From positions 124,001 to 188,000 of the forward strand of contig OZ076409.1 of the NCBI GenBank assembly GCA_964187785.1: DNA of 64,000 bases. Reading direction: 5' to 3'. Source of the DNA: Amphiscolops sp. MND2022 (Eukaryota). Below the pieces are notes generated by a model, which was given only the letters and a program-made list of their open reading frames with translations, was not told the origin of the DNA and did no database searches. Position numbers and translations under genes: made by a program. Below are positions 4,811-63,000 of this stretch, piece by piece. Position 1 is the stretch's first letter. Each line of letters starts with the position of its first letter.

Positions 4811-4829
4811 GATCCCTCTGTGGTCGCCA
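4811..4829 (-). promoter_or_regulatory. Primer binding site, tRNA-Arg-like (TGGCGACCACAGAGGGATC)
   Basis: + strand GATCCCTCTGTGGTCGCCA resembles the 3' end plus CCA of metazoan tRNA-Arg(TCG) (..TCCCTTCGTGGTCG-CCA, recalled). It sits just inside the LTR and is conserved in copy B (TGGCGACCAC at 13630). Confidence 0.7.
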
Positions 4830-4847
4830 AAAAATATTGATGTTCCA

Positions 4848-5556: not shown

Positions 5557-5755
5557 TTACTTTTTCTCTACACCAGAGACCTTACACTGAAGAGTCCACT
5601 TCTTACACTAGTTACTGTCCCCCATCCAGTTTTTTCCAGTTTTTCAATGTTTTGTACCAAACCGAACGAGAATATGGGTCCCCAGGTATAATTGTTTCGG
5701 CGAAATATCGGAACAGAAGCGCTATATGCGATCTTTTGACGTTATAACCGTTATT

Positions 5756-5958
5756 GAGGAGGAGGAGGAGGAGGAGGAGGAGGAGGAGGAGGAGGAGGAG
5801 GAGGAGGAGGAGGAGGAGGAGGAGGAGGAGGAGGAGGAGGAGGAGGAGGAGGAGGAGGAGTAGGAGGAGGAGGAAGAGGACGGAGGAGGGAGGAGGAGGA
5901 GGAGGAGGAGGAGGAGGAGGAGGAGGAGGAGGAGGAGGAGGAGGAGGAGGAGGAGGAG
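5756..5958. repeat. (GAG/GGA)n trinucleotide microsatellite, ~200 bp
   Basis: Directly visible, with a few interruptions near 5860-5890. Confidence 0.98.
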
Positions 5959-10500: not shown

Positions 10501-11190
10501 TTCTGTTCATAGGTGTTTTGTTTGCATAATTTATCGTCTTTTTCAGTTCTAGTGTCTTTTTTTGTTGTCGGTGATTGCTGTCATGTTTTTAGATACCTGT
10601 AGTTCTCGATCTCGATTAGTCCTCTCCAAAACTCCTCGGGTGTTTCTTCTTTCGTTTGTTTTTCCCAAAAGAAGTCTCCACGGTTGTGGTATGTGTTGCG
10701 TTCCAGTAAGTAGTACTCGATGAACAACCGGATGAAGTCTTCAATTATGATACTTTCCGGTTCCGTTTTATACTCGGCACGGGTTGTTTGATACAACGCT
10801 TCAGGTCCTACTTCCCAGATGAAATCTTCCTGGATGAGGTGTTCTTTTCCGGTCCACCTGGTTTCCGTGATGTCTTCTCCTTTTATCAGTGGTGCGCTAC
10901 CTTATTTATGTTCTCGTTTAGTAAACTGCCGGAATCGTTCTAACCACTGTCACGGTGTGAATTTCGCGTTTCCGTGCTTCTACGTCCGGTAGTGTATTTT
11001 TTTCTGTCATGGTTCTAGTTTTTTAAGAAGGTTTCATTAGAAAAATGGTCGAGCTGGCGGTTACCCAAAATCAGTCTGGAAGACGTATCAAAAACACCAA
11101 ACACAGAAGACACACCGAGAAGACACCCGATGAGCGTAGACAACTCCGAAAAACAACCAAAACCCCCCGTGTTGGTCTTGCTCGTGCCAG
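7511..11190 (-). mobile_element. Decayed, internally deleted Ty3/Gypsy element (gag-PR-RT-[RNase H missing]-IN, PPT, putative 3' LTR)
   Basis: Minus-strand motifs: gag (ERNTYHNRGDFFWEKQTKEETPEEFW), protease relic (DIDTE*PITIMPP), RT (ISKIDLDYAYGQMKLS, VWLDDII, KWLGHEIDKNGIKP), integrase (EPCQEIQIDF...LLIAVDRFSKWP, HTGNGVLKKSIQTLK). Purine tract AGAGAGAGGGGACAA precedes TGTGAT at 7742. PBS-like TGGCACGAG at 11181-11189. Many stops and frameshifts. Confidence 0.85.
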
Positions 11191-11399
11191 AAATCGCTCT
11201 TTTGCAACAGCATCAGAAGAAGTGCTTTGGAAACTGTGTAACTCAACAGCAGGAAAAGGCTTTTTTTGCATGTACTGCCTCAGACTGGCAACTCAATGAC
11301 TAGCTGAGACTGTATGTCGATCTTTCTGGCGCATTTCAGTGTAATTGTTGAAACTTTCAGGTAGTTGGAGATTTATGATCTGCTACATTAATTATGGTC

Positions 11400-11917
11400 A
11401 TCACATATACCCCATAAAATGTACTTCAGCTAGTTGCCATCTTTAGACCTCAGGAGTAAGTTGGAAGTCTCGGCAACGCTAGGATCCGTTATTACGTGCT
11501 TGTGGGGGGACGTGTCCGGACATTCATAACGCCAGCACGTTGCCTCAAAGCTCTGAAAAAGTAGTGTTCTCGCCGTTAGAAATGTCCCCCACCAGAACAC
11601 TTCTGGGAACAAGACTGAGGTCTAGGCTAGTGAACAGACTACAGTTTAGTGTCCAGGCAACCAGGTCATTGTCCCGGCTCAAGCATGTGTTCCTTTTGCA
11701 GGAGTTTCTATGAGTGACTAATCGAAGGCTTGAGACCTCACAAAAAAGTGTTTATATGCTCTATCTGCTAAAGACCAAGCTAACTGAAGTCAAGCAGCTA
11801 CACGCGACCAGCACATTAACTTTTGTAGACTTTGACTTTCGAGGTATTCGACTCACTCTGCGAAAAGAGCTCACTGATGACAACTTTGATGCTGGGATCA
11901 GAACAATTGGTCACTAG
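11400..11917 (+). pseudogene. Possible highly decayed non-LTR retrotransposon RT fragment
   Basis: Weak motifs LQFSVQATRS...HVFLLQ and ATSTLTFVDF...(frameshift) FDSL resemble the RT domain 2a/3 pattern QxGFR..RS / FVDFxKAFDS. Confidence 0.3.
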
Positions 11918-11923
11918 AACGGA

Positions 11924-11963
11924 AGGGTTAGGGTTAGGGTTAGGGTTAGGGTTAGGGTTAGGG
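11924..11963 (+). repeat. Interstitial telomeric repeat AGGG(TTAGGG)6
   Basis: Six perfect TTAGGG units at 11928-11963. Confidence 0.95.
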
Positions 11964-12908
11964 TCGCCAGAAAAAAAACAAGAGACGACATTCTGAAAAA
12001 TTGGATATCGTCCACAAAAAGCTGCAACAATTAGTACAGCAACTATTTTGTCGAATGTTTTTTATTCTTAAGTTCCAAAAGCCTCTCATACCAACCCCCT
12101 AGAGAGAGTGGCGAAAAGTATCTGTTCCGACAACTGCCGGAAGGAAATATGATAATTACTCTCAAAAATGATTCTAAATTGCAAAGTAGAGCTGGAAGCA
12201 TATGCTTACAAACAATGGCTAAAAGAATCACCCCTCTCCAGATGCAAAAAGTAAGTCGAGTCGCCTGATTCTCTTGTTTTCTCACTTCTCATTTTTTGCC
12301 TTCGCGCCACGCCTCTTCCGACACTGAACATATACAAGCATGAAGAGATATAGAACAAGACCGGAACGTAGAGTCGGCACTATAATTACGGCTCAAAAAG
12401 CACAGTTTTCAAAGTATGTCTGGGACCGTTTCATGAACAACATGTTTTCAACAACAACATGTTTTGGAACCTCCGCTTCCTCTTTAAGAAAACGCTATTT
12501 AGTTCGGATATAACGTCAAAAGTTTATACAAAAGTCAAATATTGCGAAAGTAAACACTTTTCAATTCAAAGTCGAACAATCAGATTTAGCCCTCCACTTT
12601 GGATATTACGAAAGTAAAAAGTAAATAAATATATTAAAAGTGAAAAATGAAAGGGGGACTCGTCGTACGAAGCTTCCGCTTGCCGGACATGGTAGTTTCT
12701 GTAAAAAGTGGACATTTCAGTGTGAGGTTTGTGGTCTGGAGAAAAGAGGTCACTTTAAAAATCGGGCATTTTTGCTTCACAAAAAGCGCCCACTAAAACT
12801 AAACAAGAGTCAAAATTATCAAAACTATAGGCAGATTCGAGAAGCAAGTTGAATGAAAAAACACAGTATGCTACCAGACGGAATATACAGATATGTGAAA
12901 CAACAAAG

Positions 12909-18422: not shown

Positions 18423-18642
<220 letters not shown>

Positions 18643-26487: not shown

Positions 26488-26857
26488 TTAACATCTAGAA
26501 ATTGAACTGACTATAAACTCTCATAAACAGCTGGAATTTATCTTTTCACAGCAGGAGGTGTCGAAAAACTTAGTTTTGACCATATCAAAAGACTTTTGTT
26601 TCCAACTTGTTAACATCTAGAAATTGAACTGACTATAAACTCTCATAAACAGCTGGAATTTATCTTTTCACAGCAGGAGGTGTCAAAAAACTTAGTTTTG
26701 ACCATATCAAAAGACTTTTGTTTCCAACTTGTTAACATCTAGAAATTGAACTGACTATAAACTCTCATAAACAGCTGGAATTTATCTTTTCACAGCAGGA
26801 GGTGTCAAAAAACTTAGTTTTGACCATATCAAAAGACTTTTGTTTCCAACTTGTTAA
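26488..26857. repeat. Near-perfect 122-bp tandem triplication bounded by TTAA
   Basis: TTAA at 26488, 26610, 26732 and 26854. Only about one mismatch seen between units. Confidence 0.95.
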
Positions 26858-27447
26858 CCCCAATCGACCTGGGCGTTTTTTAAAATTTTCGAAAAATTTG
26901 CCAAAAAAATTTCAATCATCAATATTTCCACAACTACGCGTACCAGAGGAACGAACTATAGCGCGTTTGAAAGGTCTGATATTGGGCTTTCATTTTGGTC
27001 AGGTGAGTCCCTGTCGCCGCGCGCCCCTTCCTTCAGAATTTTAGTCTCTTTTTCCGGTACCGCCGCTTCGCGGCAGTTCCGCACTTCGTACGGCCCGCTG
27101 CGCGGGGGCTTGTAGTAACAACAGAATATTATAGGGGTTTGTTGCACCAGGACTTGTTGTGGAAGGGTATGTGGTTGGTTTTTTCTATTGATCAAAGACT
27201 TTTGAGAAAACAGGATTTCGTCAAAATCTGAATTTTGAGGAAATATAACTCTTTTTTGTGCAGAAAACTCATTTTTCTCAGCTTTGGAGATATATTCCCT
27301 TTTTCTAATGCTTGTGCCATTCAAATCAATCTAGGTACCAATTACTTGTTGAAAAAAACTGTGCTAGAGAAAATGGGCTACTGGCAAAAGTAATCGGAAT
27401 TTGGAAAAAAGGTAGGCTGCTTTAAAGCATCACTAGGTTCATTGGGG
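26858..27447. mobile_element. piggyBac-type MITE (TTAA|CCCCAAT...ATTGGGG|TTAA); partial inverted copy ~30700-31115
   Basis: TTAA on both sides, imperfect TIR CCCCAATCGACCTGG / CTAGGTTCATTGGGG, and no ORF. Confidence 0.75.
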
Positions 27448-36000: not shown

Positions 36001-39000
36001 TCAAAAGCTGCTATTTCTTAACAATATTTCGAACAATATCCAAAAACCTGTTCGACAACAGTGAATTAGAGATTGTCGATGGACAACGTGTCCTCGGCTC
36101 GGTAATAGGTTCAGAATCAGCGTGCAATTATTACAAACTTAAAAAGCAAAACGAGTACATTGAAGTTGTCGAAAAGTTATCAAAACTTGCTGAAACATCC
36201 CCACAAAACGTGTATCGATCACTGTTTCACTAAGGGACTTCCGCGCAAGTTGACATTCTTATCCCGCACTACACTCACAATCTTAGAGAATCTTCAAGAA
36301 ACCGAAAAACATATTAAGAGCAAATTGATACCGGCTTTGACTGGCAAGCAAGAAACTTCCGACGACGAACGCTCCTCTCCTTTACCGGTTAGAGACGGAG
36401 GGTTAACCATAAGCCTACCTGAACACCGACTGCAAGAAATCAACGGGTCTAGAGAGATGGCGTCATGCCTGGAAAGCGATGATTTGGCCGCGAAGCTGCA
36501 AAAACTGTTGTAAAAAAAACAGATTCGAAAACACAAATCCACAAAAGTAAAGGAAAAAATAACATTTTTGAAGGATTGCCTTCACAAAAACCAACGTTAC
36601 GCCTCAGATCTTGCTGTTTAAAAAGGTGCGTCGAGATGGCTAAACACGCTGTCACTGAAGCGCTATCACTATGACTTGACGAAAACTAAATTCCGCGACG
36701 CTTTAGTTTTGCGCTATGGTTGGGAACCACTCAAAATATCGACAATATGCCCGTGCCAAGCCCTTTTTAGCCTGTCGCATTCCCTCCAATGCAACAAGGG
36801 CGGTTATACACAAATGCGACATGATGAAATTCGAGACGCTTCCGACGCTAAGAACACTTTCGCCGCTAAATTCGAGACACTTTAGCTCCTTTCTTTAATC
36901 ATTCCCTTTATATTAAACTGTGAATTAATACTAGGCTTCCCAGGTACTGACCGTTTCAAGTTCGAATTTGTTCAAGATTAAACAACCGCAAGAATAGCCT
37001 GATTGCTTAGCCAATTATTCAATTTTCTCAAGTTCTGCCATCAACTGCAGCAGGACTCGTTAAGGCTTGAGACTATTTGAAATCTGGAGTTAGCTTTAGC
37101 AGTCTTAAATCCTCAGGAGTGTCAGTACATGAGGGGCCTATTTTTAGCACCCCACGCTTGAGTACCTTGAAGATCATTATCCTTCGAATTACTCCACGAT
37201 GTTCCTTTCAAACAAAACCTGTGATAATATGTATTTGAATAAAGTGATCCGATTCTCTGCATTTTTTTCGGCACTTATGTAGCAAGACTATAGTAGTGGC
37301 ATTTTAAAGACCGACGAAGTGACTGATTTTATAAGCTGCTGGCAGTATCCTATTCGACAATCTACATTCTACACTTGAGCTGTAAAATTGCTAAGGAGTC
37401 CCATTCGACGATAACACAAGCCATACCGGCGGATTTAACGCAAACCGGATATAACGTATACCGGATATAATGTTTCTTGGAGAATTTTTCAAAGCTGTAA
37501 AAAGTGCTAAGGAGTCCCCTTGGACAATAACAACTCATATCGGATTTAACGCAAACCGGATATAACGAATTCCGTATATAACGTATACCGGATACAACGT
37601 TTCTTGGAGAATTTTCCAAAGCTGTAAAAAGTGCTAAGGAGTCGCCTTCGACAATAACACAACCCATTCCGAATTTAACGCAAACCAGATATAACATATA
37701 TACCTGATTCAACGTTTCTTGGAGAATTTTTCAAAGCTGTAAAAAGTTTCTCATAACATCTAACACGTTCTGAATTTCGGATAAAACGTTTCAAAGTTCG
37801 GATTTAACGTCTTCAAAGTTCGGATATAACGTTTTTATTTCTCGTATAACATTATCGATGTTATTCCCCCAAAATTTCACATAATTTGCGTCCAATGTAA
37901 AGCTTTAGGTTTTCAGTACTATAAGACTTTTTGGATTTTTGAAAAGTCTTTATTCAACAAGTGATACTAAAACCAGGTCACCGGGTACACTTTTGTGCCT
38001 TGAGTGGGGTGCCGACTTGGGCCGTCCCCTGCTTGTTTTGACTTTTGTTTGTGTTCCTGCGAAACTATTGGTGTTCGAATAAGTTTCGAGGAAGAAATAG
38101 TTTTCCGGAAAACGTCCTTTTGCGCCAACAAACTTTTCAGCTACCCATCAATTCATTTGGCAAACAAAGTTGCCTCAGGCGTGCGCAAAAGCATTTTGCC
38201 TCTAGTTGACATGTCCCTTGAAGTGGGTCCCTTGAGAGGTCTGCAATAAAAAGCGACAGGGTCTGTTACTCCGACATTCCGCTCGCAATCTGTGAGAGCA
38301 TATCAGTAGTAATAGCAGGGGGGTTAAATGATGTTTTGGGCTCCCAACCGAAATTATTCTAAGTCAGAAACCTATCTCACTTTTAGGGCTCCCAACCGAA
38401 ATTATTCTAAGTCAGAAACCTATCTCACTTTTAGGGCTCCCAACCGAATTTATTCTAAGTCACAAAGGTTAAAGTTCATTCTAACCATACTGAAATGAAT
38501 GTATGCCAATTGTCATCCATGTTTACTTGGACAAACTAATGATGAATTCAATACGTTTCAACAATGGTAACTGTGTTCTGACTTAGAATAATCTCGACTC
38601 GGGCGCCCAGAAATTGCAATGAGAATCTGAGAATAATTTCGGCTAAAGAGCTGTAAACATGCACAAACTTGCAGTTATACGACCGAGTTCATTGAATCTT
38701 AGCTACTTTAGACTTATAGTATTGTACTGTATTTTGAAATAGTAGACAGAAATTTTGAAGACAGAAAGGTTGAAGTTCATATTAACCATACCGAGCGGGA
38801 TGTATGCCAATTGTCATGAATGTTTACTAATGCAAACTAATGATGATAAATAGAATAATCTCGAATTAGGAGCCATAAAAGTGTAATAAGAATCTCAGAA
38901 TATTTTCAGGCAATGAACTGTAAACATGCACAAACCTTCTACAGTAGCATATGAGCGTTTTCCAAAATAACGTGTACCGTAGAACAAATGCGCTGTATCT

Positions 39001-42000
39001 GAACATTTGATGTTATATCCGAACTGAAAATATTTCACACGAGAATATAATTTCAAATTCCTGAAAACTATAAATGCAATTTATATAAAATTTAGCCCAG
39101 TCATTTTACATCCGAAGGTGCTCATGCGTGAGCAACGGCATCAAAATCCTTTGACTGGGATGAGAGAAACATAACCAAAATTAGACAAAAAATTACCAAA
39201 ACTGCAATTTTTGGACATTTTTCGATTTTCTCAAAAACTGTCCATTCGATTCGAACGATTTTTTTACATTCATTCAATAACGTAATAGGGTCCTTCGTCT
39301 GCAATTAGATCAAAATTATATGGGAGCTGAGAAACATAGCCAAGATTAGTCAAAAAATGATCAAAAAACGTCCATTGCTGGACTTTTTCGATTTCCTCAA
39401 AAACTGTCCATTCGATTCGAACGATTTTTTTACATTCATTCAATAACAAAATAGGGTCTTTCGTGTGCAATTAGATCAAAATTGTATGGGAGCTGAGACA
39501 CATAGCCAAGATTAGTAAAAAAATGACCGAAAAACGTCCATTTTTGGACTTTTCGATTTTCTCAAAACTGTTCATACGATTCAAACGACATTTTTTTAAC
39601 AAACCGAATTTATTCTAAGTCATAAAGGTTAAAGTTCATTCTAACCATACTGAACTGAATGTATGCCAATTGTCATCCATGTTTACTTGGACAAACTCAG
39701 TTCAGTATGGTTAGAATGAACTTTAACCTTTATGACTTAGAATAAATTCGTTTTGGTCTGTTGGTCTGTATATACGACCGTGTTCATCGAATTTTAGCTA
39801 CCTTAGACGTATAGTATGGTACTGTATATTGAAAGATAGATCGAATATAAGTCCTATACGACTTTGTTCAATGATTTTTAGCTACTTTAGACATACAGTA
39901 TGGTACTGTATATTGAAAGATTAATGGAATATAAAACCTATACGATCGTGTTAATTGAATCTTAGCTACTTTAGACCTATAGTATTGTACTGTATATTGA
40001 AAGATAGATCGAAAATAAGTCCTATACGAAATTGTTCATCGAATCTTAGCTACTTCAGACTTATAGTATGGAACTGTATATTGAAAGATTGATCGAATAT
40101 AAAACCTATGCAATCGTGCTAATTGAAGCTTAGCTACTTTAGACCTATAGTATTGTACTGAAGATTGAAAGATAGATCAAATATAAGTCCTATTCGAAAG
40201 TGTTCATCGAATCAGCCACCTTAGACTTATGGTATGGAACTGTATATTGATAAATAGATCGAATATAAGTCCTATACGACCGTGTTCATCGAATCTTAGC
40301 TACTTTAGACCTATAATATGGTACTGTATAATGAAAGATAATTCAAACATAAGTCCTATACGGCTGTGTTCATCGAATCTTAGCTACTTTAGACCTATGA
40401 TATGGTACTGTATAGGGAAAGATAGATCGAACATAATTCCTATACGGTTGTGTTCATTGCTTCTTAACTACTTTAGCCCTATCGTATTGTACTGTATATA
40501 GAAAGATAAATCGAATATAAGTCCTATACGAAAGTATTCATCGAATCTTAGCTACTTTAGACTTATAGTATGGAACTGTATATTGAAAAACAGATCGAAT
40601 ATAAGTCCAATACTACCATGTTCATCGAATCTTAGCTACTTTAGAAAAATAGTAATGTATATTGAAGATAGATCGAATATAAGTCCTATACGACCATGTT
40701 AATCGAATCTTAGCTACTTCAGAATTATAGTATGGTACTGTATATTGAAAGATTGATCTATAATAAAACCTATGCAATCGTGTTAATTGAATCTTAGCTA
40801 CTTTAGACCTATAGTCTTGTACTGAATATTGAAAGATAGATCGAATATAAGTCCTATACGAAAGTGTTCATCGAATCAGCCACTTTAGACATATAGTATG
40901 GAACTGTATATTGAAAAATAGATCAAATATAAATCCCATACTATCGTGTTCATCGAATCTTAGCTACTTTAGACCTATAATATGGTACTGTATATGGAAA
41001 GATAGATCGAACAAAGGTCCTATACGGCTGTGTTCATAGAATCTCAGCCACTTTAGTCCTATAGTATGGTACTGTATTTTGAAAGATAGATCGAATACAA
41101 TTCCTATACGGCTGTGTTCCTTGAATCTTAGCTACTTTAGTCCTATCGTATTGTACTGTATATGGAAAGATAAATCGAACATAAGTCCTATACGAAAATG
41201 TTCATCGAATCTTAGCTACTTTAGACTGATAGTATGGAACTCTATATTGAAAAACAGATCGGATATAAGTCCGATACGACCGTGTTCGTCGAATCTTAAC
41301 TACTTTAGAAGTACAGTATGGTAATGTATATTGAAAGATAGATCGAATATAGGTCCTATACGACCGTGTCCTTTGAATCTTAGCTACTTTAGACCTATAG
41401 TGTGGTACTGGACATTGAAAGATAAATCGAAAATAAGTCCTATACGACCGTGTCCTTTGAATCTTAGCTACTTTAGACCTATAGTGTGGTACTGGACATT
41501 GAAAGATAAACCGAAAATAAGTCCTATACGATCGTGTTCTTTAAAGCTTTGCTACTTTAGACCTATAATATAGTACTGTATAATGAAAGATAAATCGAAA
41601 ATAAGTCCTATACGACCGTGTTCTTTGAATCTTAGCTACTTTAGACCTGTAGTATGGTACTGTATATTGAAAGATAAATCAAAAATAAGTCCTATACGAC
41701 CGTGTTCTTTGAATCTTAGCTACTTTAGACCTGTAGTATGGTACTGTATAATGAAAGATAAATCGAAAATAAGTCCTATACGACCGTGTTCTTTGAATCT
41801 TAGCTACTTTAGACCTGTAGTATGGTACTGTATATTGAAAGATAAATCAAAAAAAAGTCCTATACGACCGTGTTCTTTGAATCTTAGCTACTTTAGACCT
41901 GTAGTATGGTACTGGACATTGGAAGATAAATCGAAAATAAGTCCTATACGACCGCGTTCATTGAATCTTAGCTTTTTTATATCCATAATATGGATCTGCA

Positions 42001-45000
42001 TATTGAAAGATGGATCGAATATAAGTCCTATACGACCGTGTTCATCAAATCTTAGCTACTTTAGACCTATAGTATGGTGCTGTATAATGACAGATAGGTC
42101 GAATATAAAACCTATAAAACTGTGTTCACTGAATCTTAGCTTCTTTAGACCGGTAGTTTGGGACTGCATATTGAAAGAGATGGAAAATAGGTCCTATTCG
42201 ACTGTGTTCATTGAATGTTAGCTACTCCGGACCTATAGTATGGTACTGTATTTTGAACGATATATCGATTATAAGTCCTATGCGGTCGTGTTCATCGAAA
42301 CTTAGCTACTTTAGACCTATAGTATGGTACTGTATATTGAATGATAGGTCAAACATAAAACCTATACGACTGTGTTCACAGAATATTAGGTACTTCAAAC
42401 CTATAGAATGGGACTGTATATTGAAAGATAGATCGAATATAAAATCTACACGACTGTTTTCACTGAATCTTAGCAACTTGACATACAGTATGGTACAAAT
42501 ATTGAAAGATAGATCGAAAAAGGTCCTATACAACTGTGTTCACTGAATCTTAGCTCTTTTAGATCTATAGTATGGAACTGCATTTTGAAAGATGGATCGA
42601 TTATAAGTCCTATACGACCCTGTTCATCGAATCTTAGCTACTTTACACCTATATTATGGTACTGTATTTTGAAAGATAGATCGAATACAAAACCTGTACG
42701 ACTGTGTTCACTAAATATTAGGAACTTGAAATAGTATGATACTATAAATTGAAAGATAGATCAAAATAAGTCCAATACAACTGTGTTCATTGAATCTTAG
42801 CTCTTTTAGATCTATAGTATGGAACTGCATAATGAAAGATGGATCGATTATAAGTCCTGTACGACCGTTTTCAGTCATTCTTAGCTACTTTAGACCTTTA
42901 GTAAGGTACTGTAGATTGAAGGATTAATCGGATATAAAACCTGACATAATTTTACTTCTCTTGCGTCTTTTTGCAAAAAATTGAAAGTTCAACGGGCGAA
43001 ATAATGCTTTTTCGCTCGCTCTAGAAAAAAAAGTTTCAAGTGCTAAACTCTACTCTAATGGAAAAACCTGACTGTCGCAATAACGTTTCCAATCCGTAAC
43101 TCTTTTGATCACTAGAATGGATCAAATTCCATTGATTGATCCATAGATTGCATCAGGAATGGTTGAATTGTTTAGATCGCAATTCGAATGCCAACAACTT
43201 TCAAAGGGTGAAAATGTTTTCTCTACAACTCCCATCGTTTTTCGATTTCTTTCGAAAGCTGAGTATCCATTTTTCAAACTTTTCCATAAGAGTTCTAAAA
43301 TCTTAAATATGCAGATTGCAGACTCCACCGGGAAAGATTACATTGTTTCGCTCTTCGAATGATTGTTCGAAGGGTAACAATTTCACAAGGGTCAACATAA
43401 TTTTCCACAACCACCTGCCCCAATTGTGAAACACCGCTGTCAAGAAAACTGTGCTGTGTTCAAATCTGAGGTAAGTATACGGTTGATATTGGAAGCTGGG
43501 AGTGCTGGACTGGTCTGCTGAAAAGTTGTGTTGCTGCTGTTGGCATGTTTGATAGAAGACAAAGAAGAGAAAACTGACTATCAATATTTTTCTGAATAAT
43601 TGCGTGGACTTTCACTGCAATATGAAATAGATGAATAGTTCAACAGAGTGGCCGAGCTGATATCTTCCTTGCTATCACTTTCCTTTGCAACTGCGGAATG
43701 AATTTTGTGAATTCTGATGCAAAATTCGGTTTCCCAAAACTTTGCAAACGATGCATTTTTAGTTACGGTCGGCAGTGTTGAATTTTTTTAAACAGTTTTA
43801 GAAATCTTTCTGGGCGTGCACTCCGAAAAGGTACATCACAAGTAACTTACAACCACTTTCCCAATTCTTACTTCAAAACGGCTTCTTTCGATTTCTACCA
43901 AAACCATAAACCACAAAATATGTGACCTTTTAACGTTGAAAACGTGTGGTCATTGTGTGAAAGTTAGTCCATGAACATTGGGACGATAACTTAGGAGCAG
44001 ACCGGCAGGCAGTGTGGCCTGAGTGATTAGTCCTCTAGCTAGATACCATACTCGTCTGAAATGTATCGAGCGATCAAACCACTTGGGTCACACTACTTTT
44101 CTTTCGATAGGACAATCGAAGACAAGTTGTTCACCTTATGAATGAAGTCTCCACGTGAAAGCTTCGGGCGTGATTCCATTCTCCACGGACTAATTGTTTT
44201 CTCAGCCCCTTCATTGAAAGCGACTTCTTATTGAAATCTAGCTCCCTAGGCAACGATTCGGAAAAAATTGCGACCTTCACGAATGTTTCTGGGTGAGGAG
44301 TTGAGTTTTTTTCGAGACTTCACATTTATTGTACAGCTACCGGATTCCAGGCCGCGATTATCGGTGTAAGAAGGCCTCCACCTGCTTTGAGATGTGTTGG
44401 TATGTTATGGTTGCTACAGAGTTTTGAAATTTGAACGGCTATACTTCGCCACCGACCGCCACGCTCCGGGTTTCCGCTCGCCGACCGTCGCGATCCGGGT
44501 TTCCGCTCGCCGACCGTCCCAATCCGGGTTTCCGCCCGCCGACCGCCGCGATCCGAGTTTCCACTCGCCGCTGCCCAGCCAAAGGGCAACTCTGGGAACC
44601 AAACCAAACGAGGTCTATGGTACAAAGAATATTTTGATCCTCTCTGCAAGAATTTGATTTGGTCCATCCTGGCTCTTTGGGAAAATTGTCTGCAGATCAA
44701 ACACCAGCAAAGCTTGTTTTTAAATTTGATGTAATGTTGTTGACTTATCCATCAAACGGCTTTCAGCAAGATTGACCTCAGCATTGTATATCAAACTATT
44801 CCTATCAAACTGATCATTTCGCTATTAGTCGTATGTTTATCCTGAAATAGGGTTTCATATAACCGGAGATTTTGTTTGAAGAACTTTATTCATAAAAACC
44901 TGTAGAACTATTTGAAGGTAACAGCTTCAAAGCCGGTCAGCGTTCCACAATTAACAAGCTGATGAAGACTTAACTTGGGTTTACAACCAAATTTCAGAAA

Positions 45001-48000
45001 CTAAAGTTTGATGAGAATGTTAGGTTTTAGGCAGTTGCTTCAGACGAATAGAGTGACTGTGATGAATCAGTGAGCAGCAGCAGCAGCAGTGTCCCCACTT
45101 CTGACAGTGATACTTAAACAGACTCCCTCGATATTTTAGATTTCCTCAATAACAGCTGCTCGTCGCGTGCTTCGAGCTACGCGAGTCCACTGAAACAAGC
45201 TTCAAACTCTGACTCGGCAAATTTCAGTTGGTACCGTTTCATTCACAGTGTATCGATCACTTGATATTCACCATTGATATTAACCTAATTGCGCCCGATG
45301 CTGGCCTAAACAATCAGCTTCTTGCTCTAGCGATGATGGAGAATTAGCAAATGTTATTGACTGGGATGCTCTATCTGACGACTTGTCTGATGAGTAGCAG
45401 GATGCCCACTTTGATTGTCCATTCATGAGTTATGAGGCACAGAAGTCAACTGACATTGGAAATTTTTCGGAAAAACGGTAGTGATAAATCGGGATTTTCA
45501 TAATTCGTCAAACATGGTCATAGGTAGACGCCAGGTTCAGTTAAAGAGACGTTCTGGTCAGCATTTTTTCGCCAGTTCGTGGATTTTCTTCATACGCTCA
45601 CTTGTAATCCTAGTTGTGTGGACGATTCCTGACTTTGGAAGCCCTGAAGTTGAAATGAAGTTTTTGAAAAATTCTGAAAAGTTTCCAAGTCCCACAACTT
45701 TTGCTCGGGAAATGCTAGAACGCTTAAACCTCGTTAAGAAGGCCAAATGGTTTTGCTCGGGAAAAATTTGGACAGGGGGTCCCCCTAGAGTTCCATACTA
45801 TAAGTCTAAAGTAGCTAAGATTCGATGAACATTTTCGTATAGGACTTATATTCGATTTATCTTTCCATATACAGTACAATACGATAGGACTAAAGTAGCT
45901 AAGATTCAAGGAACACAGCCGTATAGGAATTATATTCGATCTATCTTTCAATATACAGTACCATACTATAGGACTGAAGTGGCTGAGATTCTATGAACAC
46001 AGCCGTAAAGGACCTTTGTTCGATCTATCTTTCCATATACAGTACAATACGATAGGACTAAAGTAGCTAAGATTCAATGAACACAGCCGTATAGGAATTA
46101 TATTCGATCTATCTTTCAAAATACAGCACTTACAATAGGACTAAAGTAGCTGGGATTCTTTGAACATAGCCCTATAGGACCTTTGTTCGATCTACTTTTC
46201 AATATACAGTTCCATAATATAGGTCTAAAGTAGAAAAGATTCGACGAACACGGTCGTATCGGACTTATATCCGATCTGTTTTTCAATATAGAGTTCCATA
46301 CTATAAGTCTAAAGTAGCTAACATTCGCTGAACATTTTCGTATAGGACTTATGTTCGATTTATCTTTCCATATACAGTACAATACGATAGGACTAAAGTA
46401 GCTAAGATTCAAGGAACACAGCCGTATAGGAATTGTATTCGATCTATCTTTCAAAATACAGTACCATACTATAGGACTAAAGTGGCTGAGATTCTATGAA
46501 CACAGCCGTATAGGACCTTTGTTCGATCTATCTTTCCATATACAGTACAATACGATAGGACTGAAGTAGCTAAGGTTCAAGGAACACAGCAGTATAGGAA
46601 TTGTATTCGATCTATCTTTCAAAATACAGTACCATACTATAGGACTGAAGTGGCTGAGATTCAATGAACACAGCCGTATAGGAATTACATTCGATCTATC
46701 TTCCAAAATACAGCACATACAATAGGACTAAAGTAGCTGGGATTCTTTGAACATAGTCCTAGATGACCTTTGTTCGAGCTATTTTTCAATATACAGTTTC
46801 ATAATATAGGTCTAAAGTAGAAAAGATTCGATGAACACGGTCGTATAGGACCTATATTCGATCTATCTTTCAATATACATTACCATACTGTCCTTTTAAA
46901 GTAGTTAAGATTCGACGAACACGGTCGTATCGGACTTATATCCGATCTGTTTTTCAATATAGAGTTCCATACTATAAGTCTAAAGTAGCTAACATTCGCT
47001 GAACATTTTCGTATAGGACTTATGTTCGATTTATCTTTCCATATACAGTACAATACGATAGGACTAAAGTAGCTAAGATTCAAGGAACACAGCCGTATAG
47101 GAATTGTATTCGATCTATCTTTCAAAATACAGTACCATACTATAGGACTAAAGTGGCTGAGATTCTATGAACACAGCCGTATAGGACCTTTGTTCGATCT
47201 ATCTTTCCATATACAGTACAATACGATAGGACTGAAGTAGCTAAGATTCAAGGAACACAGCCGTATAGGAATTGTATTCGATCTATCTTTCAAAATACAG
47301 TACCATACTATAGGACTGAAGTGGCTGAGATTCAATGAACACAGCCGTATAGGAATTATATTCGATCTATCTTCCAAAATACAGCACATACAATAGGACT
47401 AAAGTAGCTGGGATTCTTTGAACATAGTCCTAGATGACCTTTGTTCGAGCTATTTTTCAATATACAGTTTCATAATATAGGTCTAAAGTAGAAAAGATTC
47501 GATGAACACGGTCGTAGAGGACCTATATTCGATCTATCTTTCAATATACATTACCATACTGTACTTCTAAAGTAGTTAAGATTCGACGAACACGGTCGTA
47601 TTGGACTTATACCCGATCTGTTTTTCAATGTAGAGTTCCATACTATAAGTCTAAAGTAGCTAAGATTCGATGAACATTTTCTTATAGGACTTATGTTCGA
47701 TTTATCTTGCCATATACAGTACAATACGATAGGACTAAAGTAGCTGAGATTCAAGGAACACAGCCGTATAGGAATTATATTCGATCTATCTTTCAAAATA
47801 CAGCACATACAATAGGACTAAAGTAGCTGGGATTCTTTGAACATAGCCCTATAGGACCTTTGTTCGATCTATTTTTCAATATACAGTTCCATAATATAGG
47901 TCTAAAGTAGAAAAGATTCGATGAACACGGTCGTATAGGACCTATATTCGATCTATCTTTCAATATACATTACCATACTGTCCTTCTAAAGTAGTTAAGA

Positions 48001-51000
48001 TTCAACGAACACGGTCGTATCGGACTTATATCCGATCTGTTTTTCAATATAGAGTTCCATACTATAAGTCTAAAGTAGCTAAGATTCGCTGAACATTTTC
48101 GTATAGGACTTATGTTCGATTTATCTTTCCATATACAGTACAATACGATAGGACTAAAGTAGCTAAAATTCAAGGAACACAGCCGTATAGGAATTGTATT
48201 CGATCTATCTTTCAAAATACAGTACCATACTATAGGACTAAAGTGGCTGAGATTCTATGAACACAGCCGTATAGGACCTTTGTTCGATCTATCTTTCCAT
48301 ATACAGTACAATACGATAGGACTAAAGTAGCTAAGATTCAAGGAACACAGCCGTATAGGAATTGTATTCGATCTATCTTTCAAAAAACAGTACCATACTA
48401 GAGGACTGAAGTAGCTGGGATTCTTTGAACATAGTCCTAGAGGACCTTTGTTCGAGCTATTTTTCATTATACAGTTCCATAATATAGGTCTAAAGTAGAA
48501 AAGATTCGATGAACACGGTCGTATAGGACCTATATTCGATCTATCTTTCAATATACATTACCATACTGTACTTCTAAAGTAGTTAAGATTCGACGAACAC
48601 GGTCGTATTGGACTTATATCCGATCTGTTTTTCAATATAGAGTTCCATACTATAAGTCTAAAGTAGCTAAGATTCGATGAACTTTTTCGTATAGGACTTA
48701 TGTTCGATTTATCTTGCCATATACAGTACAATACGATAGGACTAAAGTAGCTAAGATTCAAGGAACACAGCCGTATAGGAATTGTAATCGATCTATCTTT
48801 CAAAATACAGTACCATACTATAGGACTAAAGTGGCTGAGATTCTATGAACACAGCCGTATAGGACCTTTGTTCGATCTATCTTTCCATATACAGTACCAT
48901 ATTATAGGTCTAAAGTAGCTAAGATTCGATGAACACGATAGTATGGGATTTATATTTGATCTATTTTTCAATATACAGTTCCATACTATATGTCTAAAGT
49001 GGCTGATTCGATGAACACTTTCGTATAGGACTTATATTCGATCTATCTTTCAATATTCAGTACAAGACTATAGGCCTAAAGTAGCTAAGATTCAATTAAC
49101 ACGATTGCATAGGTTTTATTATAGATCAATCTTTCAATATACAGTACCATACTATAATTCTGAAGTAGCTAAGATTCGATTAACATGGTCGTATAGGACT
49201 TATATTCGATCTATCTTTCAATATACATTACTATACTATTTTTCTAAAGTAGCTAAGATTCGATGAACATGGTAGTATTGGACTTATATTCGATCTGTTT
49301 TTCAATATACAGTTCCATACTATAAGTCTAAAGTAGCTAAGATTCGATGAATACTTTCGTATAGGACTTATATTCGATTTATCTTTCTATATACAGTACA
49401 ATACGATAGGGCTAAAGTATTTAAGATGCAATGAACACAGCCGTATAGGAATTATGTTCGATCTATCTTTCACTATACAGTACCATATCATAGGTCTAAA
49501 GTAGCTAAGATTCGATGAACACAGCCGTATAGGACTTATGTTTGAATTATCTTTCATTATACAGTACCATATTATAGGTCTAAAGTAGCTAAGATTCGAT
49601 GAACAAGGTCGTATAGGACTTATATTCGATCTATTTATCAATATACAGTTCCATACTATAAGTCTGAAGTAGCTTAGATTCGATGAACAATTTCGTATAG
49701 GACTTATTTTCGATCTATCTTTCAATATACAGTACAATACTATAGGTCTAAAGTAGCTAAGATTCAATTAACACGATCGTATAGGTTTTATATTCCATTA
49801 ATCTTTCAATATACAGTACCATACTGTATGTCTAAAGTAGCTAAAAATCAATGAACAAAGTCGTATAGGACTTATATTCGTTCTATCTTTCAGTATACAG
49901 TACCATACTCTACGTCTAAGGTAGCTGAAATTCGATGAACACGGTCGTATAGGACTTATATTTGATATATCTTTCGATATACAGCCCCATACTGTAGGTC
50001 TAAAGTAGCTAAGATTCAATGAACACGGTCGTGTAGGACTTATATTCGGTCTATATTTCAAAATACAGTACAATACTATAAGTCTAAAGTAGCTAAGATT
50101 CAATGAACTCGGTCGTATAACTGCAAGTTTGTGCATGTTTACAGCTCTTTAGCCGAAATTATTCTCAGATTCTCATTGCAATTTCTGGGCGCCCGAGTCG
50201 AGATTATTCTAAGTCAGAACACAGTTACCATTGTTGAAACGTATTGAATTCATCATTAGTTTGTCCAAGTAAACATGGATGACAATTGGCATACATTCAT
50301 TTCAGTATGGTTAGAATGAACTTTAACCTTTGTGACTTAGAATAAATTCGGTTGGGAGCCCTAAAAGTGAGATAGGTTTCTGACTTAGAATAATTTCGGT
50401 TGGGAGCCCTAAAAGTGAGATAGGTTTCTGACTTAGAATAATTTCGACTGGGAGCCCAAAACATCATTTAACCCCCCCCCCTGCTATTACTACTCATATC
50501 AACAAGAGTAACAACAGTTTCTGTTTCTTCTGTTGGCATGTGTTTTTTCTATGGCCGCAAAAGCTGCAAATTTAAGACGCAGCGAGCAAGCTACTTTCGT
50601 TACTCTGACACTCGAGGTCTGCTAACTTCTCAACGAGCATCATCAAGTCTTTTCTAATCGTTTGTAGAAAACGTTGCATGAGCCTTAATGACCTCTTTTT
50701 AGGTTTTTCGGCATTGTGCGACTTTTTTACCAAATACTTGTTTTGGAAAAAAATATTTTTTTCCAAATATTTCCAATAGTTGTTCCTTGAATATTTTTGA
50801 GCCTAAGACATGGCGCCGACTTGGGACGTTCCCGTCTTGTTTGGATAATGGGCTAATACAGTCCGTTTACAGAAGGAGATCAGTCAACAATGCATTATGC
50901 ATGCCTTTTCTTGGACAAAGGCGCAAACATTGTTTAGTAATTTTATCAAACGAATTAAAGATTCGCGATAGCAAATTATTGAAAAAGTATTTTAGTCGAA

Positions 51001-54000: not shown

Positions 54001-57000
54001 CCCTGCCTCGAAACAGCAAAAAACGTAATTTTGAAATATATATATATTAGTGGCTGGAGAGCAGACGTTCGTGAGTTCGAATCCCGGGTTGAACATTTAC
54101 TCGAAAGTTAACAAAACCAACGTACCCTCTTCACTTTTTGAAAAGTTTTCGGTGTGGAAGAATCGTAGGTACCCCTTGGCCTATTTTTCAGAACTGTATT
54201 GTTAATTGACATTTTCACAATTGTCCCTTCGCATATCTAAAACAGTCTGCTCTGTTTGAACTTTGAGCTAGGCCTCGACTTGGGCCGTTCCCGACATGTT
54301 CACTTTGTTTCAGTGTATCCAAAAATCCAAATGCCCCTTTGATTGTCTCTCATTTTTACTTGGATTACTGAGCTATATGAGATGGAAGGGCTGCCTTGGG
54401 TTTTGAAATTTTCAACGAAACCGCACCGGAGCATATTTGCCTGACGGACGTTTCGCTTTTTGAGCGTTTCGCGGGGAGACGTTTCCCGTCTTGTTACGAC
54501 ATGAACAATATGGTTTTTGACATCAGAAAAGAGAAGAAGGGAGATGGTTGGACTTGTTGTGGTTCCAGGTTACGTGCACATCCCCCCTGGAAGAAGAGGC
54601 TGGCAGAACAGCGAGTTTCTGCAGCAGAGGATGCAGCAGCTGCAAAGCATCATCGCCGAGGTTGACCCCAAAAGACCCACGCAAGAGGTAAGTTGAGCAG
54701 GTCGTTTGCGTTTGACTTGAACACCGCCGTTATACATATTTCGACTTGAACAAATAAAATATATTATTTTTAATGTTGAATAATTCTTTAGAAGAAATGC
54801 TTTGCATAGCTAGCATTGCAATGTTTACACAATTTGTCCAATGAGATTTTTGCAAATTCTGTTGGAATTATCGACGTAATGTAATAACGAATACATGCCT
54901 ATTTGTCAACAAACGTTTATGGAACATCAAAACCGTTGATAAGGTTGTTGCTAAAATTGGATAAATATATTTTTTCCAATGAAAATACCTATTTATGAGT
55001 GATATTCATAAAAGTATTTTTCTTGCAAACATATATTCAAATATATTTTGTTTACATTGCTGACTGCGAGTATGTGTGTGTTGAGGACTTCAATGAACTC
55101 ATGGTTCGCGGCTTCAATTCGCACAGCCTGCCCCCCAAGCCCCCAGTGGCAGAAAGGTTGAAGACCTCTAGTCACGTGCAGCTGGTGACGCTGGACAGTC
55201 CCCGCACTGAGAACCTGCCCGACGAGTTCTACCAAGAGCTCCTCCTCGTCGACAGGTAAGTCAGGCAGTGACGTCACACCACTATCACTACTGCCCAGCC
55301 CAGCCCAATCATACACAACAATACACATACGCTAGACAGAGTGGAAAGGGTTTGGCGGCAGTCAGGGTTGGCACAAATGAAAAAAAAACATTTTTAAACA
55401 CACGTTTTAAAATAAAACTTGTTTAATTCACGAAAAAAAAACATATTTTGCCCAACCCTGGCGGCAATTTGGGTGTTTGATCCATAGTTAGATTTCAAAT
55501 CATTTGTTGACTGGTATTTGTTTCGGCTCTTTTTGTAGGATTGTGTTCGTATTAAGTGTTTATTGATGACTCAAAACAGGAAGCTATTGATTTCTTCATC
55601 AAAAATGCGTAACTACATAGGGAAAAAGTGTGAACAAAGTTGGTATCTAAATCCTAAACTATCACCCTGAGAATAAATTTGAAGCTGAAGCTTTCTGGCT
55701 TGTATTCAAGTCTATTTGTTATAAGGTTTACACTAATTTTCCAAAAAAAATTGGTGGTGGGGGGGCAGAAAAGAGCCTTTGTTTCTAGCAATCAAGCTGT
55801 GACCTTTTCTGCGGGGGGAGAGGACGAGAGCCAATCGGGGGCAGCACCCAAGTGCACACACACGCAGCAGCACAGCGGGGGCTGTGTGAGTGGGCCGGCG
55901 CTGCGGGTGGGCGGTGTGAGTGCGGAGTGGGAGGGCGACGACACCAGCAGACTGGGCGAGATAGGCGCCAGTTGTCGGGTCATCCTGCAGGGCAGCCAGG
56001 GCAGCCAGTTGACCTCCTGGCTCGAACTAGTCAACTACGGCTCCACCGTCATCCGCTTCAACTGGACTGTGAGTGCCACTGCCACTGCATTTCTCACAAA
56101 TCAATCCCTGTCTCTAGGCCACGCCACGTATACTACACTACGTATTGTGGTGTCTTCTCAACAAAAACTCCCGGCCACCCTTTTTCTCATCGTTCTCTCA
56201 AAGCGTGCACACACTATACTAACAAGACGGGAACGTCTCAAGTCGGCGCCCCTCTAAAGGCCCAAAAAGCGAGAGCAGTCTTTCAAATATGCTAAAAGCC
56301 TATTTTATGAAAGTTCTGAAAGATCTCTATGTCGAAAAAATGGGCTCAAACAGGGGACTTTCTCTAATTTCAAAAAACTGCGTTGTACCCTTTCGTGAAA
56401 TGAAAACAATTTCGAAATATTGAGTGTTGTACCGGGAAAATCCGAAAAGGGGTCCATTTGGTCTCATATAATTTTGTAGATCATATAAAAATGTGGAAAA
56501 CTCAAGGGAAGGACCACCCTTTTGGTATCTTTCAGTTCTTTTAAAGTTGTAAAAAATGAATATTTCAAGGTGAAAGTTGTCATCTGGCATAAAAACGTGC
56601 AACTGTAAGACTCGGGCAATGTTTTTATTTATTAACCCTAGTCGAACTTCCATACATTTTCTGCAAGAATCTGTCAGATTTTACTTTCAAGATCTTGGAA
56701 GACGATGCATTATTCTTGCAGGTATCTTGGAAGAAAATGTCTGGTCTTGCAAGATCTTGCAAGAAATGTGTGAATCTTGGAAGTAACTTGGAAGAAAATG
56801 CTTATATCTTGAAAGTAAATTGAAAAAAGAGTTTGAAAATTTTCAATTGAAAGATTTTTACAGCATCAGCAAAATAAATATAGATGAAGATAAACATAAA
56901 TATGTACACATATTCAGAGATGAGTTCGTTCGATATATGTGATTCTGGAGGTAGTCTGCTGCTTTCGTCTTCATGAGAATAAGACTACCTTCTGGGCTGC

Positions 57001-60000: not shown

Positions 60001-63000
60001 GCTCCGCTTCGCTTCGCTCCTGCATTAAGGACCCTAGGGGTATGTGAACATAGCTGACTACGTTATAATAATTGAGCTTTTAATTAAAATTATTTTGGCC
60101 CTTTTGTCTGGAAGCGTTTTTGTCTGGACACGATCTGAGACGCATTTGATAATTTGAATGTGGGGTGAAATGATGCTAAACTGTCCTCCCTCTTTGCAAA
60201 TGCAAATGTGTTGTGTTGTGTTGTGTTTGCAGAGAGAGAAGCGGTACAACCCGTTCGACGTGGCCAAGCCGGTGCTGGAGCAGCGCTTCTACTTCAACCA
60301 GGGTCCCAGCGTGATCCTGCCCAGACAGCGGCTGCTGTTCCCCTTCGTGTTCAAGAGCGACCTCGCCGGCATCTTCTCCGAGCACTGGCAACTCAACACC
60401 ACCCCCAAGCTGTGTGGCGGCGCCAAACTCGTCGTCTCCCTGCGCGGCATCGCCCTCAAGGTCGACAAGTACCTGCCCGTGAGACAACACATCAATGTTA
60501 GCATCGCGATGCTACCACCATTGCTACCGTCCCTCCCCCCCCCCCTCTTCTCTCTTCTATTCCATTCCAGGCAGGGGGGGTGGCACTGTAGAAACCCCTG
60601 TAGACTGCGGTGGCCTACTCTTTCTAACGGATTGCGGACGTTTCGGGGAAAAAATATGCTGAAACGTCTCAGGTTAAAATCATTTGCCGAAACGTTCCGT
60701 ATGATATGTGGGGCATATCCAGTGTATGCACGCTCGCCCTCACCGTCGCAAAGACCAGCTCCCACTACGATCGCTTCGTGATCTCCGTTCCCGCTAGGTC
60801 TTTGCTCCTGTTCGACCTCGCTTAGCAAGATGGGAATTACGCGGGGCACTAGAGGAAATGGGGACATATCGGAGGCACGTTTTATGCCTTGCATCATTCC
60901 TACCCGTACTGAGGTCCCATGCGATCCCATGCATGGTCCATGCTAATCCCATGCATGGCCATGTCACTTTTAAGCATGGAATTGCATGGACCATGCATAG
61001 TTTTGAGGGGAAAAGCAATCGCAAAAACGCCCGAAAATGACTTCTAGAAAGGCAATGAAACACCTGGTTTAATTAAAAACTTATCTATGGCCTTTTGTGA
61101 GATGAAAAAAATTCAGCAAAAATATTCAATTCAAAAACAATGTTAGAAATGTGCCTTCAGAGATTGGGTAAAAAGCATATTGGGGGAAAGCCACAGGACC
61201 TAAAATTAGGAACTTGACGAAACTTCTTATAAACAATCCTCATAAAATGTAGAACAATTGTGGAAAGTTTACTAGCGTGAACATTCATTATTCAAGGATC
61301 TGAAAAAAACATCTCATAAGACCCAAAAAACTGTCAAAGGGATTAATGTCGAAGGAATAACGTCTAAATTCAATGTATTAAGATTGTGAATAGGCATGAC
61401 TGGCGGTAGACGTTATTCCCGTTTAGCATTTAGACGTTATTCCTTAGACGTTATTCCCGCTCGCCGAAAATGATGACAACCAAAAATGATAAAATTCAAA
61501 ATGGCCGCGTCCATCAATTTCGAACTTTTCAAAGTTAGAATTTTTTTTCAAATGGAAGTTTTTCTTTGACGCAATTTCCAGTTTCCAAAAAAATGAATTC
61601 AACACTTTTTTTCGCGATTTGAAGTTTTCCAATTTTCACGAATAGTCCCATGCATGGCCATGCATGGGATGTGACTTTTTACATGGACCATGCACGGGAT
61701 CGCATGGGACCTCAGTACGGGTCTTTCTACAAACTGGTTAGGTCCACCTTTGTCACAATACCAGTTTGTATTCTACAACACAGTTTGTAGAATTCTGGAA
61801 TTGAAGAAAAACGATAAGACCATTAATGTATATATACATTAATGGTCTTATCGTTTTTCTTCAATTCCAGAATTCTACAAACTGTGTTGTAGAATACAAA
61901 CTGGTATTGTGACAAAGGTGGACCTAACCAGTTTGTAGAAAACCAAAAAACAAAACCAAGATAATACGGGACGTTTCGGCATGAAAAATTTGCCGAAACG
62001 TCCTGTTCCCTTTCTAACCGAATGCTTGTCAGTAGTTTGTTTATATATGTGCATTACAAACCGCCGGGGGGGGGGGCGTTGAAATTTTGCAAAATTTTGG
62101 CAAGTCCCGGATTCGACTGGTGAACTTCAGGGAAATGGAAGTCAGGGTACAAATGTGATGAAACGTATCATTGGCATGAGAAACCCAAAAAACTGCCGAA
62201 AATATGAACACACCCCCCCTCCCCACACTCTACATGTTAAAAAATTGAAAAATTAATTTTTTTCCAAAAAAAACAGAAATGGTGGGGAACATTCCAAAAT
62301 TTCAACTACTCTTGTCCTCTTCTGCTCGTTCGAATCCAGGGCAAGAGACGTTTCAAAGTGTGGCTTTTCGACCGATGATTAGTAAGACTGCTGGCACTGT
62401 TGCGCATGTTGGGTGATATGGAACAATCTCGATTGCGATTTGATTAGCCATGAAATTATTTAAGTAAAGTAGTAGGAATACTAGTAGCATTGCCGTGTGA
62501 ACAATCAGATTAATATGGATTCGGTCACAGTGAATTAAGCCCGCCGAAAAGTGTGAAGTATTTGGGAAGTCCGAATTGGCGAATTGCTGAGGTGAAGTGA
62601 TCGTATTGAATGCAAAACAAATCCCACAAAAATAACGGTTTTTTGTTTTGTGTCATGCAAACAATCTTAATGTTGTCTTAAAATCCTAGTTCCATAGCTT
62701 TGGGTATCTTGACCCTAACCCAAGTTTTGCTGAGCATTGGCATTTTAGGAACGCTTAAGCCAATCAAAGTTGGTTTTAGTCTAGTTGGCCGAAAAATTAT
62801 TGGCCTTATCCGAATTTTGATGTTACTTAAACATTTACTGATTTTCATAAAGACTTATATGGCCGTTTGGCCTAGCGGTTAACGCATATTTTCACACCTG
62901 GTGTCGGTCTGAAAAGCAGGAGTACGTGGGTTCGGGCCCCTAGAGTTTTTCGGCACTATACGACTTATCGAGACATTTTTTAAATCAAATTTTTGAGAAA

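Follow-up and report, generated by a model that had tools for sequence, protein, structure and literature searches.

A gene-less, satellite-armed derivative of Maverick/Polinton elements in the genome of Amphiscolops sp. MND2022

Overview

The stretch analysed here, referred to as the window, comprises 64,000 nucleotides of contig OZ076409.1 from Amphiscolops sp. MND2022 (assembly GCA_964187785.1, positions 124,001 to 188,000 of the forward strand) and carries a gene-less element of 12,190 bp (38305-50494), in which opposed arrays of an 84-bp satellite surround a non-coding core. The element is very probably a copy of a multi-copy, non-autonomous Maverick/Polinton family that is presumably mobilised in trans and carries its satellite as cargo. 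It entered its site by insertion with a 6-bp target-site duplication, it shares its ends with gene-bearing Mavericks, and the gene-less form has moved repeatedly together with its arrays; this derivative has been mobile recently and the family is young.

The Element and Its Insertion Site

The element begins with AGTAGTAATAGCA followed by a poly-G motif, and the reverse complement of this end closes it; the termini are (AGT)2//(ACT)2 of the 5'-AG...CT-3' type, form part of terminal inverted repeats, and are bordered on both sides by CATATC, all of which stands as the initial annotation had placed it (Table 1). The (AGT)2//(ACT)2 end motifs and perfect 6-bp duplications are named as Maverick hallmarks in a passage of PMC8097293, and according to a passage of PMC3014272, which refers to "Polinton elements (autonomous and nonautonomous)", long terminal repeats and a duplication of 6 bp are typical features. 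Tandem Repeats Finder resolves 38.0 copies of the 84-bp unit in the left array and 51.6 copies in opposite orientation in the right array, with 80% matches between units in each; together they amount to 7,498 bp, or 61% of the element, around a core of 2,851 bp. The earlier description of opposed arrays of about 7.5 kb around a core of about 2.8 kb holds in these figures, but it had overlooked that the left arm includes about 1 kb of non-array sequence (38758-39770). The arms mirror each other in register, as 40665-42076 and 47806-49217 are 90% complementary, while out of register the value is 79-83%.

No Maverick gene is recognisable in the element, as had been claimed. The core contains no open reading frame (ORF) longer than 141 aa, Pfam searches of seven core ORFs returned 0 families, and no ORF in the window element corresponds to the protein-primed polymerase (pPolB), integrase, ATPase, protease or capsid protein of Mavericks; a 43-aa trace of an adenain-like protease in the core is the only relic, and is weak. 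Judged by gene content, the window element is not an autonomous Polinton and qualifies only as a non-autonomous derivative.

The 300 bp to the left of the element have a paralogue on contig C12 (G000:C12:8273150-8273750). This 601-base stretch is 95% identical to the left flank up to CATATC and 93% identical to the right flank from CATATC on; the two alignments overlap by exactly 6 bp, a single CATATC, and the element is absent. The window element is a true insertion, and the C12 site is its empty counterpart; an empty site with one CATATC, which the initial annotation had proposed to look for, exists, although it is paralogous rather than allelic. Since both flanks are contiguous in the C12 paralogue around one CATATC, both element ends belong to one locus. 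The insertion flank is itself a low-copy repeat by virtue of this 95%-identical paralogue, and window positions 37430-37834, to the left of the insertion, hold a 127-bp tandem repeat (2.1 copies) composed of 16-22-bp sub-repeats that contain CGGATATAACG.

A Multi-Copy Family with Distinct Target-Site Duplications

Genome searches covered the 1.07-Gb assembly, with the best 40 of 1364, 40 of 1869 (core) and 91 of 1908 candidates scored. Many genomic places match the opening 436 bp of the element at 89-100% identity (best 40 of 1364 candidates), and the core is found at full length at 16 places, including the window, at 94-100% (best 40 of 1869). Exact matches to the 19-nt terminus number 119 genome-wide (58 forward and 61 reverse) against 0 + 0 for the reversed control, a frequency far above chance. 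Pairing of termini within 20 kb, applied to 100 of the 119, yields 40 elements, of which 11 enclose a pPolB match (ten of 14,307-14,335 bp, and one of 18,139 bp with a 3.8-kb insertion) and 16 enclose the core and are gene-less, with lengths of 10,328-16,509 bp and a median of ~12.9 kb. The remaining 13 are unclassified; seven of these measure 14.1-14.35 kb, and they also include two short pairs of facing termini, 286 bp (G000:C5:71168671-71168956) and 2,021 bp apart (G000:C3:64973826-64975846), which may be either miniature derivatives or in-place deletions.

Perfect 6-bp duplications flank eight of the nine elements taken whole and nine of the ten pairs judged from 32-base end stretches; all 17 sequences are different, and the gene-less form as such exists in many copies, which differ in site and in duplication. 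A pyrimidine-purine step occupies positions 3-4 of the six in 36 of 37 distinct end flanks (TA in 23) against a background of 23%; these flanks are ends rather than independent insertions, as some elements are counted at both ends. The symmetric central step fits a 6-bp staggered cut, presumably by an integrase dimer.

It had also been considered that a full Maverick decayed in place, and it may be added that the inverted structure could be an assembly chimera; the weak protease-like relic would agree with the former, and long near-identical arrays are hard to assemble. Both are very unlikely here: the gene-less architecture is repeated in at least 16 paired copies that occupy different sites and have perfect duplications of differing sequence, which contradicts decay in place, and the contiguous flanks of the C12 paralogue with one CATATC imply that the structure is one locus and that the gene-less form itself moved.

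Two further arrangements were observed around the family ends. The left junction, consisting of at least 1.5 kb of flank, the element end and part of the array, is tandemly duplicated with a period of 3.3-7.2 kb at four loci: L043+L044 (G000:C6:63840300-63856000), L011/L012 (G000:C5:43043338-43050063), C3:55644873/55652061 and C7:38363089/38367515; the duplicates are 96.6-97.3% identical at the two loci checked and represent either real local duplication or haplotype mis-assembly. Two facing ends at G000:C4:33831943 (+) and C4:33901008 (-) (L020 and L019) lie 69 kb apart with near-identical, inverted outer 30 bp, which points to a large palindromic duplication with the element at its borders, or else to an error of assembly.

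Ends Shared with Resident Autonomous Mavericks

The genome contains the autonomous elements expected of a non-autonomous derivative. Copy A (G000:C3:56350068-56364402) is 14,335 bp long with 240-bp terminal repeats and a CCTAAT duplication; its ORFs encode a protein-primed polymerase (PF03175), an rve integrase (PF00665), an A32-type ATPase (PF04665) and an adenain-type protease (PF00770), together with a C2H2 zinc-finger protein and a 453-aa product whose nearest protein clusters carry double-jelly-roll capsid domains, the last being a lead only. Copy B is 99.2-99.5% identical to copy A. The terminal ~240 bp of the window element are 87-92% identical to the terminal repeat of copy A, and sister gene-less copies carry 602-727 bp of its left end at 97-98.5%. 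When 22 ends are aligned, their first ~160 bp hardly vary except for the G tract, which measures 6-14 Gs in the alignment and 15 in one other end. The putative cis-acting termini are shared with a gene-bearing resident Maverick, and the initial view of the element as a non-autonomous Maverick derivative is borne out by the 14.3-kb elements with these ends.

The end types of the family point to one side of the Maverick. The W-type end, which closes the window element on its right, follows the left-end sequence of copy A for ~40 bases beyond the 240-bp repeat; the other end of the same subfamily tracks the same sequence for as much as 727 bp; between the X-type region and copy A positions 600-845 the similarity is 67-69%. 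Right-end-specific sequence of copy A is not present in any gene-less copy examined. On these alignments, all end types of the family (three were told apart) derive from the left end of a Maverick.

Foldback elements are classically built of long inverted tandem-repeat arms on either side of a non-coding centre, and the window element has this architecture. It is nevertheless hardly credible that a foldback cut-and-paste transposon such as Drosophila FB or Tetris, unrelated to Mavericks, came by these ends through chance, given the ~240 bp in common with elements that bear pPolB and integrase and the far longer stretches in the sister copies. The duplication is 6 bp in place of the 9 bp of FB, the termini are of Maverick type, and no transposase was found in the copies examined (Pfam on core ORFs, tblastn).

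On contig C8 (L045+L046, G000:C8:126000-145999), a gene-less copy missing six bases at its start adjoins a truncated Maverick from a different lineage, with 66-85% identity to copy A; this gene-less copy and the window copy both lie within ~170 kb of a contig start.

Satellite Arrays and Core

The order of terminal repeat, forward array, core, reverse array and terminal repeat is maintained in all seven gene-less copies taken whole. The arrays comprise 6-64 units, with 34-64 in six of the seven copies and 6 in the reverse array of copy C6b; copies A and B contain no satellite. Window element positions 4240-12190 align to positions 1-7976 of copy C9 at 98.66% with 39 gap positions, the window copy is 97.1% identical to the copy on contig C8 over 9.2 kb, and a five-unit stretch of array is 99-100% identical at 16 places. 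As the arrays run collinear from copy to copy, with 98.7% identity over 8 kb, the satellite is carried as cargo and was not grown in place, in agreement with the initial proposal that the element carries it around the genome.

The origin of the cargo was sought in the autonomous elements. A profile built from 84 window units finds nothing in copies A and B or in the core (best E 2.2), and matches only positions 372-437 of the W-type end, the final ~76 bp of the left terminal repeat being a satellite-like unit. The core has no nucleotide match in copies A or B, and only the weak protease relic, which is also matched at the same core site in copies C9 and C6a by tblastn, connects it to a Maverick. 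Because the core is partly found elsewhere and has no detectable Maverick source, part of the element may be captured foreign sequence. At other loci, core positions 2522-2850 (~330 bp) form arrays with a period of ~338 bp beside core positions 1407/1515-2442 (G000:C13:32524958-32532180, C2:68707270-68713806, C3:14602370-14608233, C11:37250032-37255225 and C4:23105636-23110626), and those on C2, C3 and C4 have no nearby terminus among the 100 of 119 listed; these loci may belong to a sister satellite-bearing repeat family or be the source of a captured core.

Recombinant Origin of the Window Copy

Two subfamilies are combined in the window copy. Subfamily 1 is ordered as W-type end, forward array, core (reverse), reverse array and A-left-type end, and the ten further copies that have a W-type end all show the core oriented as it is beside the right end of the window element. 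Subfamily 2, with four known copies characterised from their ends and search coordinates, opens with an X-type end of 241 bp; the ~1 kb that comes next agrees with window element positions 454-1470 at ~100% identity, as tabulated; the core orientation in these four copies is opposite to that of the window. The right arm, the core and approximately five adjoining array units of the window copy match subfamily 1, while its left arm matches subfamily 2, including a segment (40665-41084) whose offset agrees to within 1 bp with that in the C4 copy and which matches this copy at ~100%, again as tabulated; the same segment agrees to this degree with two subfamily-2 copies and with the opposite arm. 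One exchange inside the array would explain this mosaic.

A second event affected the left end. W-type end amounting to 437-447 bp stands in place of the first ~150-160 bp of the X-type end, and comparison with the canonical W and X ends places at the join an 18-nt filler that echoes both sides; the junction is spanned only by the window locus (best 40 of 55 candidates). By this arrangement the window copy is a secondary recombinant, and its long near-identical terminal repeats (447 bp, 98.2% identity, element positions 1-447 against 12190-11741) were created by end replacement. Of the two grounds on which a fairly recent insertion was proposed initially, the intact duplication and the near-identical ends, the ends therefore cannot serve as a clock.

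The replacement is judged to have preceded insertion, since terminus and 6-bp duplication are intact, and its route was probably a switch of the polymerase onto the displaced strand. That the second W-type end was instead acquired once the element had inserted, by gene conversion with its own right end as donor, would agree with the restriction of the junction to the window locus, which gives no sign that the chimeric form transposed again; it is an improbable course, as the conversion tract would need to stop exactly at the boundary between element and flank without outer homology, and the filler is typical of template switching or end joining rather than homologous conversion.

Proposed Mobilisation and the Question of Length

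In the proposed mechanism the family would retain only the cis-acting ends of its helper, namely the (AGT)2 repeat, a 13-nt motif, the poly-G tract and three 48-bp repeats, the last being candidate protein-binding sites. The protein-primed polymerase of a helper Maverick would copy the gene-less element from its terminal repeats, and the rve integrase of the helper would insert the copy by way of a 6-bp staggered cut that has a pyrimidine-purine step at its centre, so that the satellite arrays would travel between sites as cargo. The terminal (AGT)2, with one (AGT)3 variant, fits slide-back priming; the variation in G-tract length may be homopolymer error instead. That all end types come from the left end of a Maverick suggests that the family originated by strand-switch ("snap-back") replication during protein-primed displacement synthesis. 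Defective adenovirus genomes arise by strand-switch with duplication of the left end.

Several points weigh against this reading as a whole. Mobilisation in trans is argued from shared ends and from co-residence with a helper; with only 87-92% identity between the ends of the window copy and copy A, the true helper may be a different Maverick lineage. Neither the core nor the 84-bp unit could be traced to the autonomous Maverick, and the right part of the core recurs in repeat loci without an exact terminus among the listed sites. The duplication of C2:84179622-84191657 is imperfect (4/6 match), that of C6:58833726-58848970 scores 4/6 and matches fully only if the end is read as (AGT)3, and one of the 37 end flanks lacks the central pyrimidine-purine step. 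The family counts are lower bounds, and absences from partly scored searches are weak.

The arrays could also act as length stuffer, an idea already raised in the initial annotation, with the gene-less element packed in helper-made capsids and selected for a length near that of the helper genome. Satellite makes up ~60% of each of the 16 core-bearing copies, yet in length these reach 72-115% of the 14.3-kb helper; non-autonomous DNA transposons usually fall well short of the parental length. The gene set of the helper includes an A32-type packaging ATPase, a protease and a probable capsid protein, and all end types come from the left end, which is where the packaging signal of adenovirus is located. 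A near-helper length is compatible with a packaging constraint. The lengths are nevertheless spread widely, over 6 kb, a larger unit count in one arm is not obviously offset by a smaller one in the other (in six copies, too few to test), and the terminus pairs 2,021 bp and 286 bp apart also occur, each of them single and possibly an in-place deletion; the arrays may just be tolerated cargo or products of replication slippage. Selection for packaging length is a tentative and rather unlikely proposal, and a fuller version, in which the satellite arms are ballast and a hitchhiker built of two Maverick left ends is held near helper size and spreads in helper capsids, is slightly more doubtful. 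If it were true, the length distribution of the gene-less copies would be a genomic signature of Mavericks moving as virions in Amphiscolops, and the left-end subterminal region kept at both ends would mark the packaging signal; a selected near-helper length would provide a sequence-only handle on whether Mavericks travel as virions.

Feature Coordinates and Other Features of the Window

Features of the window element are collected in Table 1. The X-region is distantly related (67-69%) to positions 600-845 of the left end of the autonomous Maverick. Sub-threshold Rfam matches were not accepted, these being the 156-bp palindrome as a microRNA family member (best 59.9 bits against a gathering score of 94) and a weak 7SK-like match; a Pfam match of an in-array ORF to UL97 is a repeat artefact that lies at the cut-off without a passing stretch.

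Table 1. Coordinates of the element and its parts in the window
Feature	Position	Strand	Remarks
Left target-site duplication CATATC	38299..38304	.	Single copy at paralogous empty site
Left terminal inverted repeat, W-type end	38305..38751	+	(AGT)2, conserved 13-nt motif, G6 tract, ~240-bp segment common to autonomous Mavericks
48-bp subterminal direct repeats, 2.8 copies	38334..38466	+	Also in the repeats of the autonomous Maverick
Illegitimate junction, ~18 nt filler	38742..38759	+	Duplicated W-type end (to element position 437) meets X-type end lacking its first ~150-160 bp
Subfamily-2 subterminal region (X-region)	38758..39770	+	~100% identical (as tabulated) to four other copies
166-bp tandem repeat, 2.6 copies, within X-region	39164..39598	+	Tandem Repeats Finder
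156-bp palindrome, 86% self-complementary	39600..39755	.	Derived from a copy of terminal-repeat positions 138-233 (element 1296-1451)
84-bp satellite array, 38 units	39771..42937	+	Forward orientation
Non-coding core, 2,851 bp	42938..45788	+	Specific to the gene-less family; absent from autonomous Mavericks
GC-rich 29-bp minisatellite, 4.1 copies, within core	44452..44570	+	Tandem Repeats Finder
Weak relic of Maverick adenain-like protease residues 20-57	44601..44729	-	tblastn 42% over 43 aa, E 5e-5; lead only
84-bp satellite array, ~52 units	45789..50119	-	Reverse orientation; directly adjoins right terminal repeat; collinear with copy C9 array
Right terminal inverted repeat, canonical W-type end of subfamily 1	50045..50494	-	G10 tract
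Right target-site duplication CATATC	50495..50500	.	Matches left duplication

The element lies ~5 kb upstream of exons of a MYCBP-associated protein gene (55.6-60.8 kb), as exon-like ORFs of this family (PF14646) are present at 55658-56257 and 60158-60781 on the + strand (E 1.8e-9 and 8.6e-20); these exons mark the host as an animal. Elsewhere in the window there are pure trinucleotide runs, (GAG)67 at 5756-5959 and (ACT)73 at 18424-18642, and a 122-bp repeat in three copies of 99% identity at 26488-26858.

Significance and Comparison with Known Systems

Mavericks/Polintons are thought to be integrated viruses whose replication, packaging and cis-acting signals are largely untested. A gene-less family with a clear helper narrows the sequence required in cis to ~240 bp with (AGT)n, a conserved motif, poly-G and three 48-bp repeats, and also yields a target preference in the central pyrimidine-purine step; the recombination and end duplication seen in the family are as expected from protein-primed, strand-displacing replication. 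The family moreover presents a virus-like transposon that disperses kilobase-scale satellite arrays over many chromosomes, a possible route of satellite seeding.

A passage of PMC5499653 defines Polintons by a protein-primed family B polymerase and a retrovirus-like integrase, and mentions that Tlr1 elements are "sometimes viewed as non-autonomous polintons"; a table in PMC8268682 records one oyster satellite as similar to a Polinton, and the reference list of that paper cites Tetris. The window element resembles autonomous Maverick/Polinton elements in its 6-bp duplication, (AGT)2//(ACT)2 termini, terminal inverted repeats and ~240-bp ends, but is gene-less, consists of 61% satellite and has both ends from the left end of its helper. 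Like non-autonomous Polintons it appears helper-dependent and retains Maverick ends; opposed satellite arrays or a near-helper length were not found described for a non-autonomous Maverick in a full-text literature search (supplements and Repbase lying outside it), and these features set the window element apart from those derivatives.

Helitron/Helentron elements carry tandem arrays, and with these and with FB and Tetris the window element has in common tandem-repeat inverted arms and the dispersal of satellite across chromosomes; it is not a member of these groups, as it has Maverick-type ends and duplication and a virus-like helper. Defective adenovirus genomes with inverted left-end duplications are known, as are helper-dependent vectors filled with stuffer DNA. 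The likeness to defective adenovirus extends to a protein-primed replicon, a terminal trinucleotide repeat, the inverted duplication of one end and a near-helper length; the window element differs in that it is chromosomal and was placed by a putative rve integrase with target duplication. It adds a variant to the known Maverick derivatives and is not categorically new, and it is relevant both to Maverick biology and to the spread of satellite DNA.

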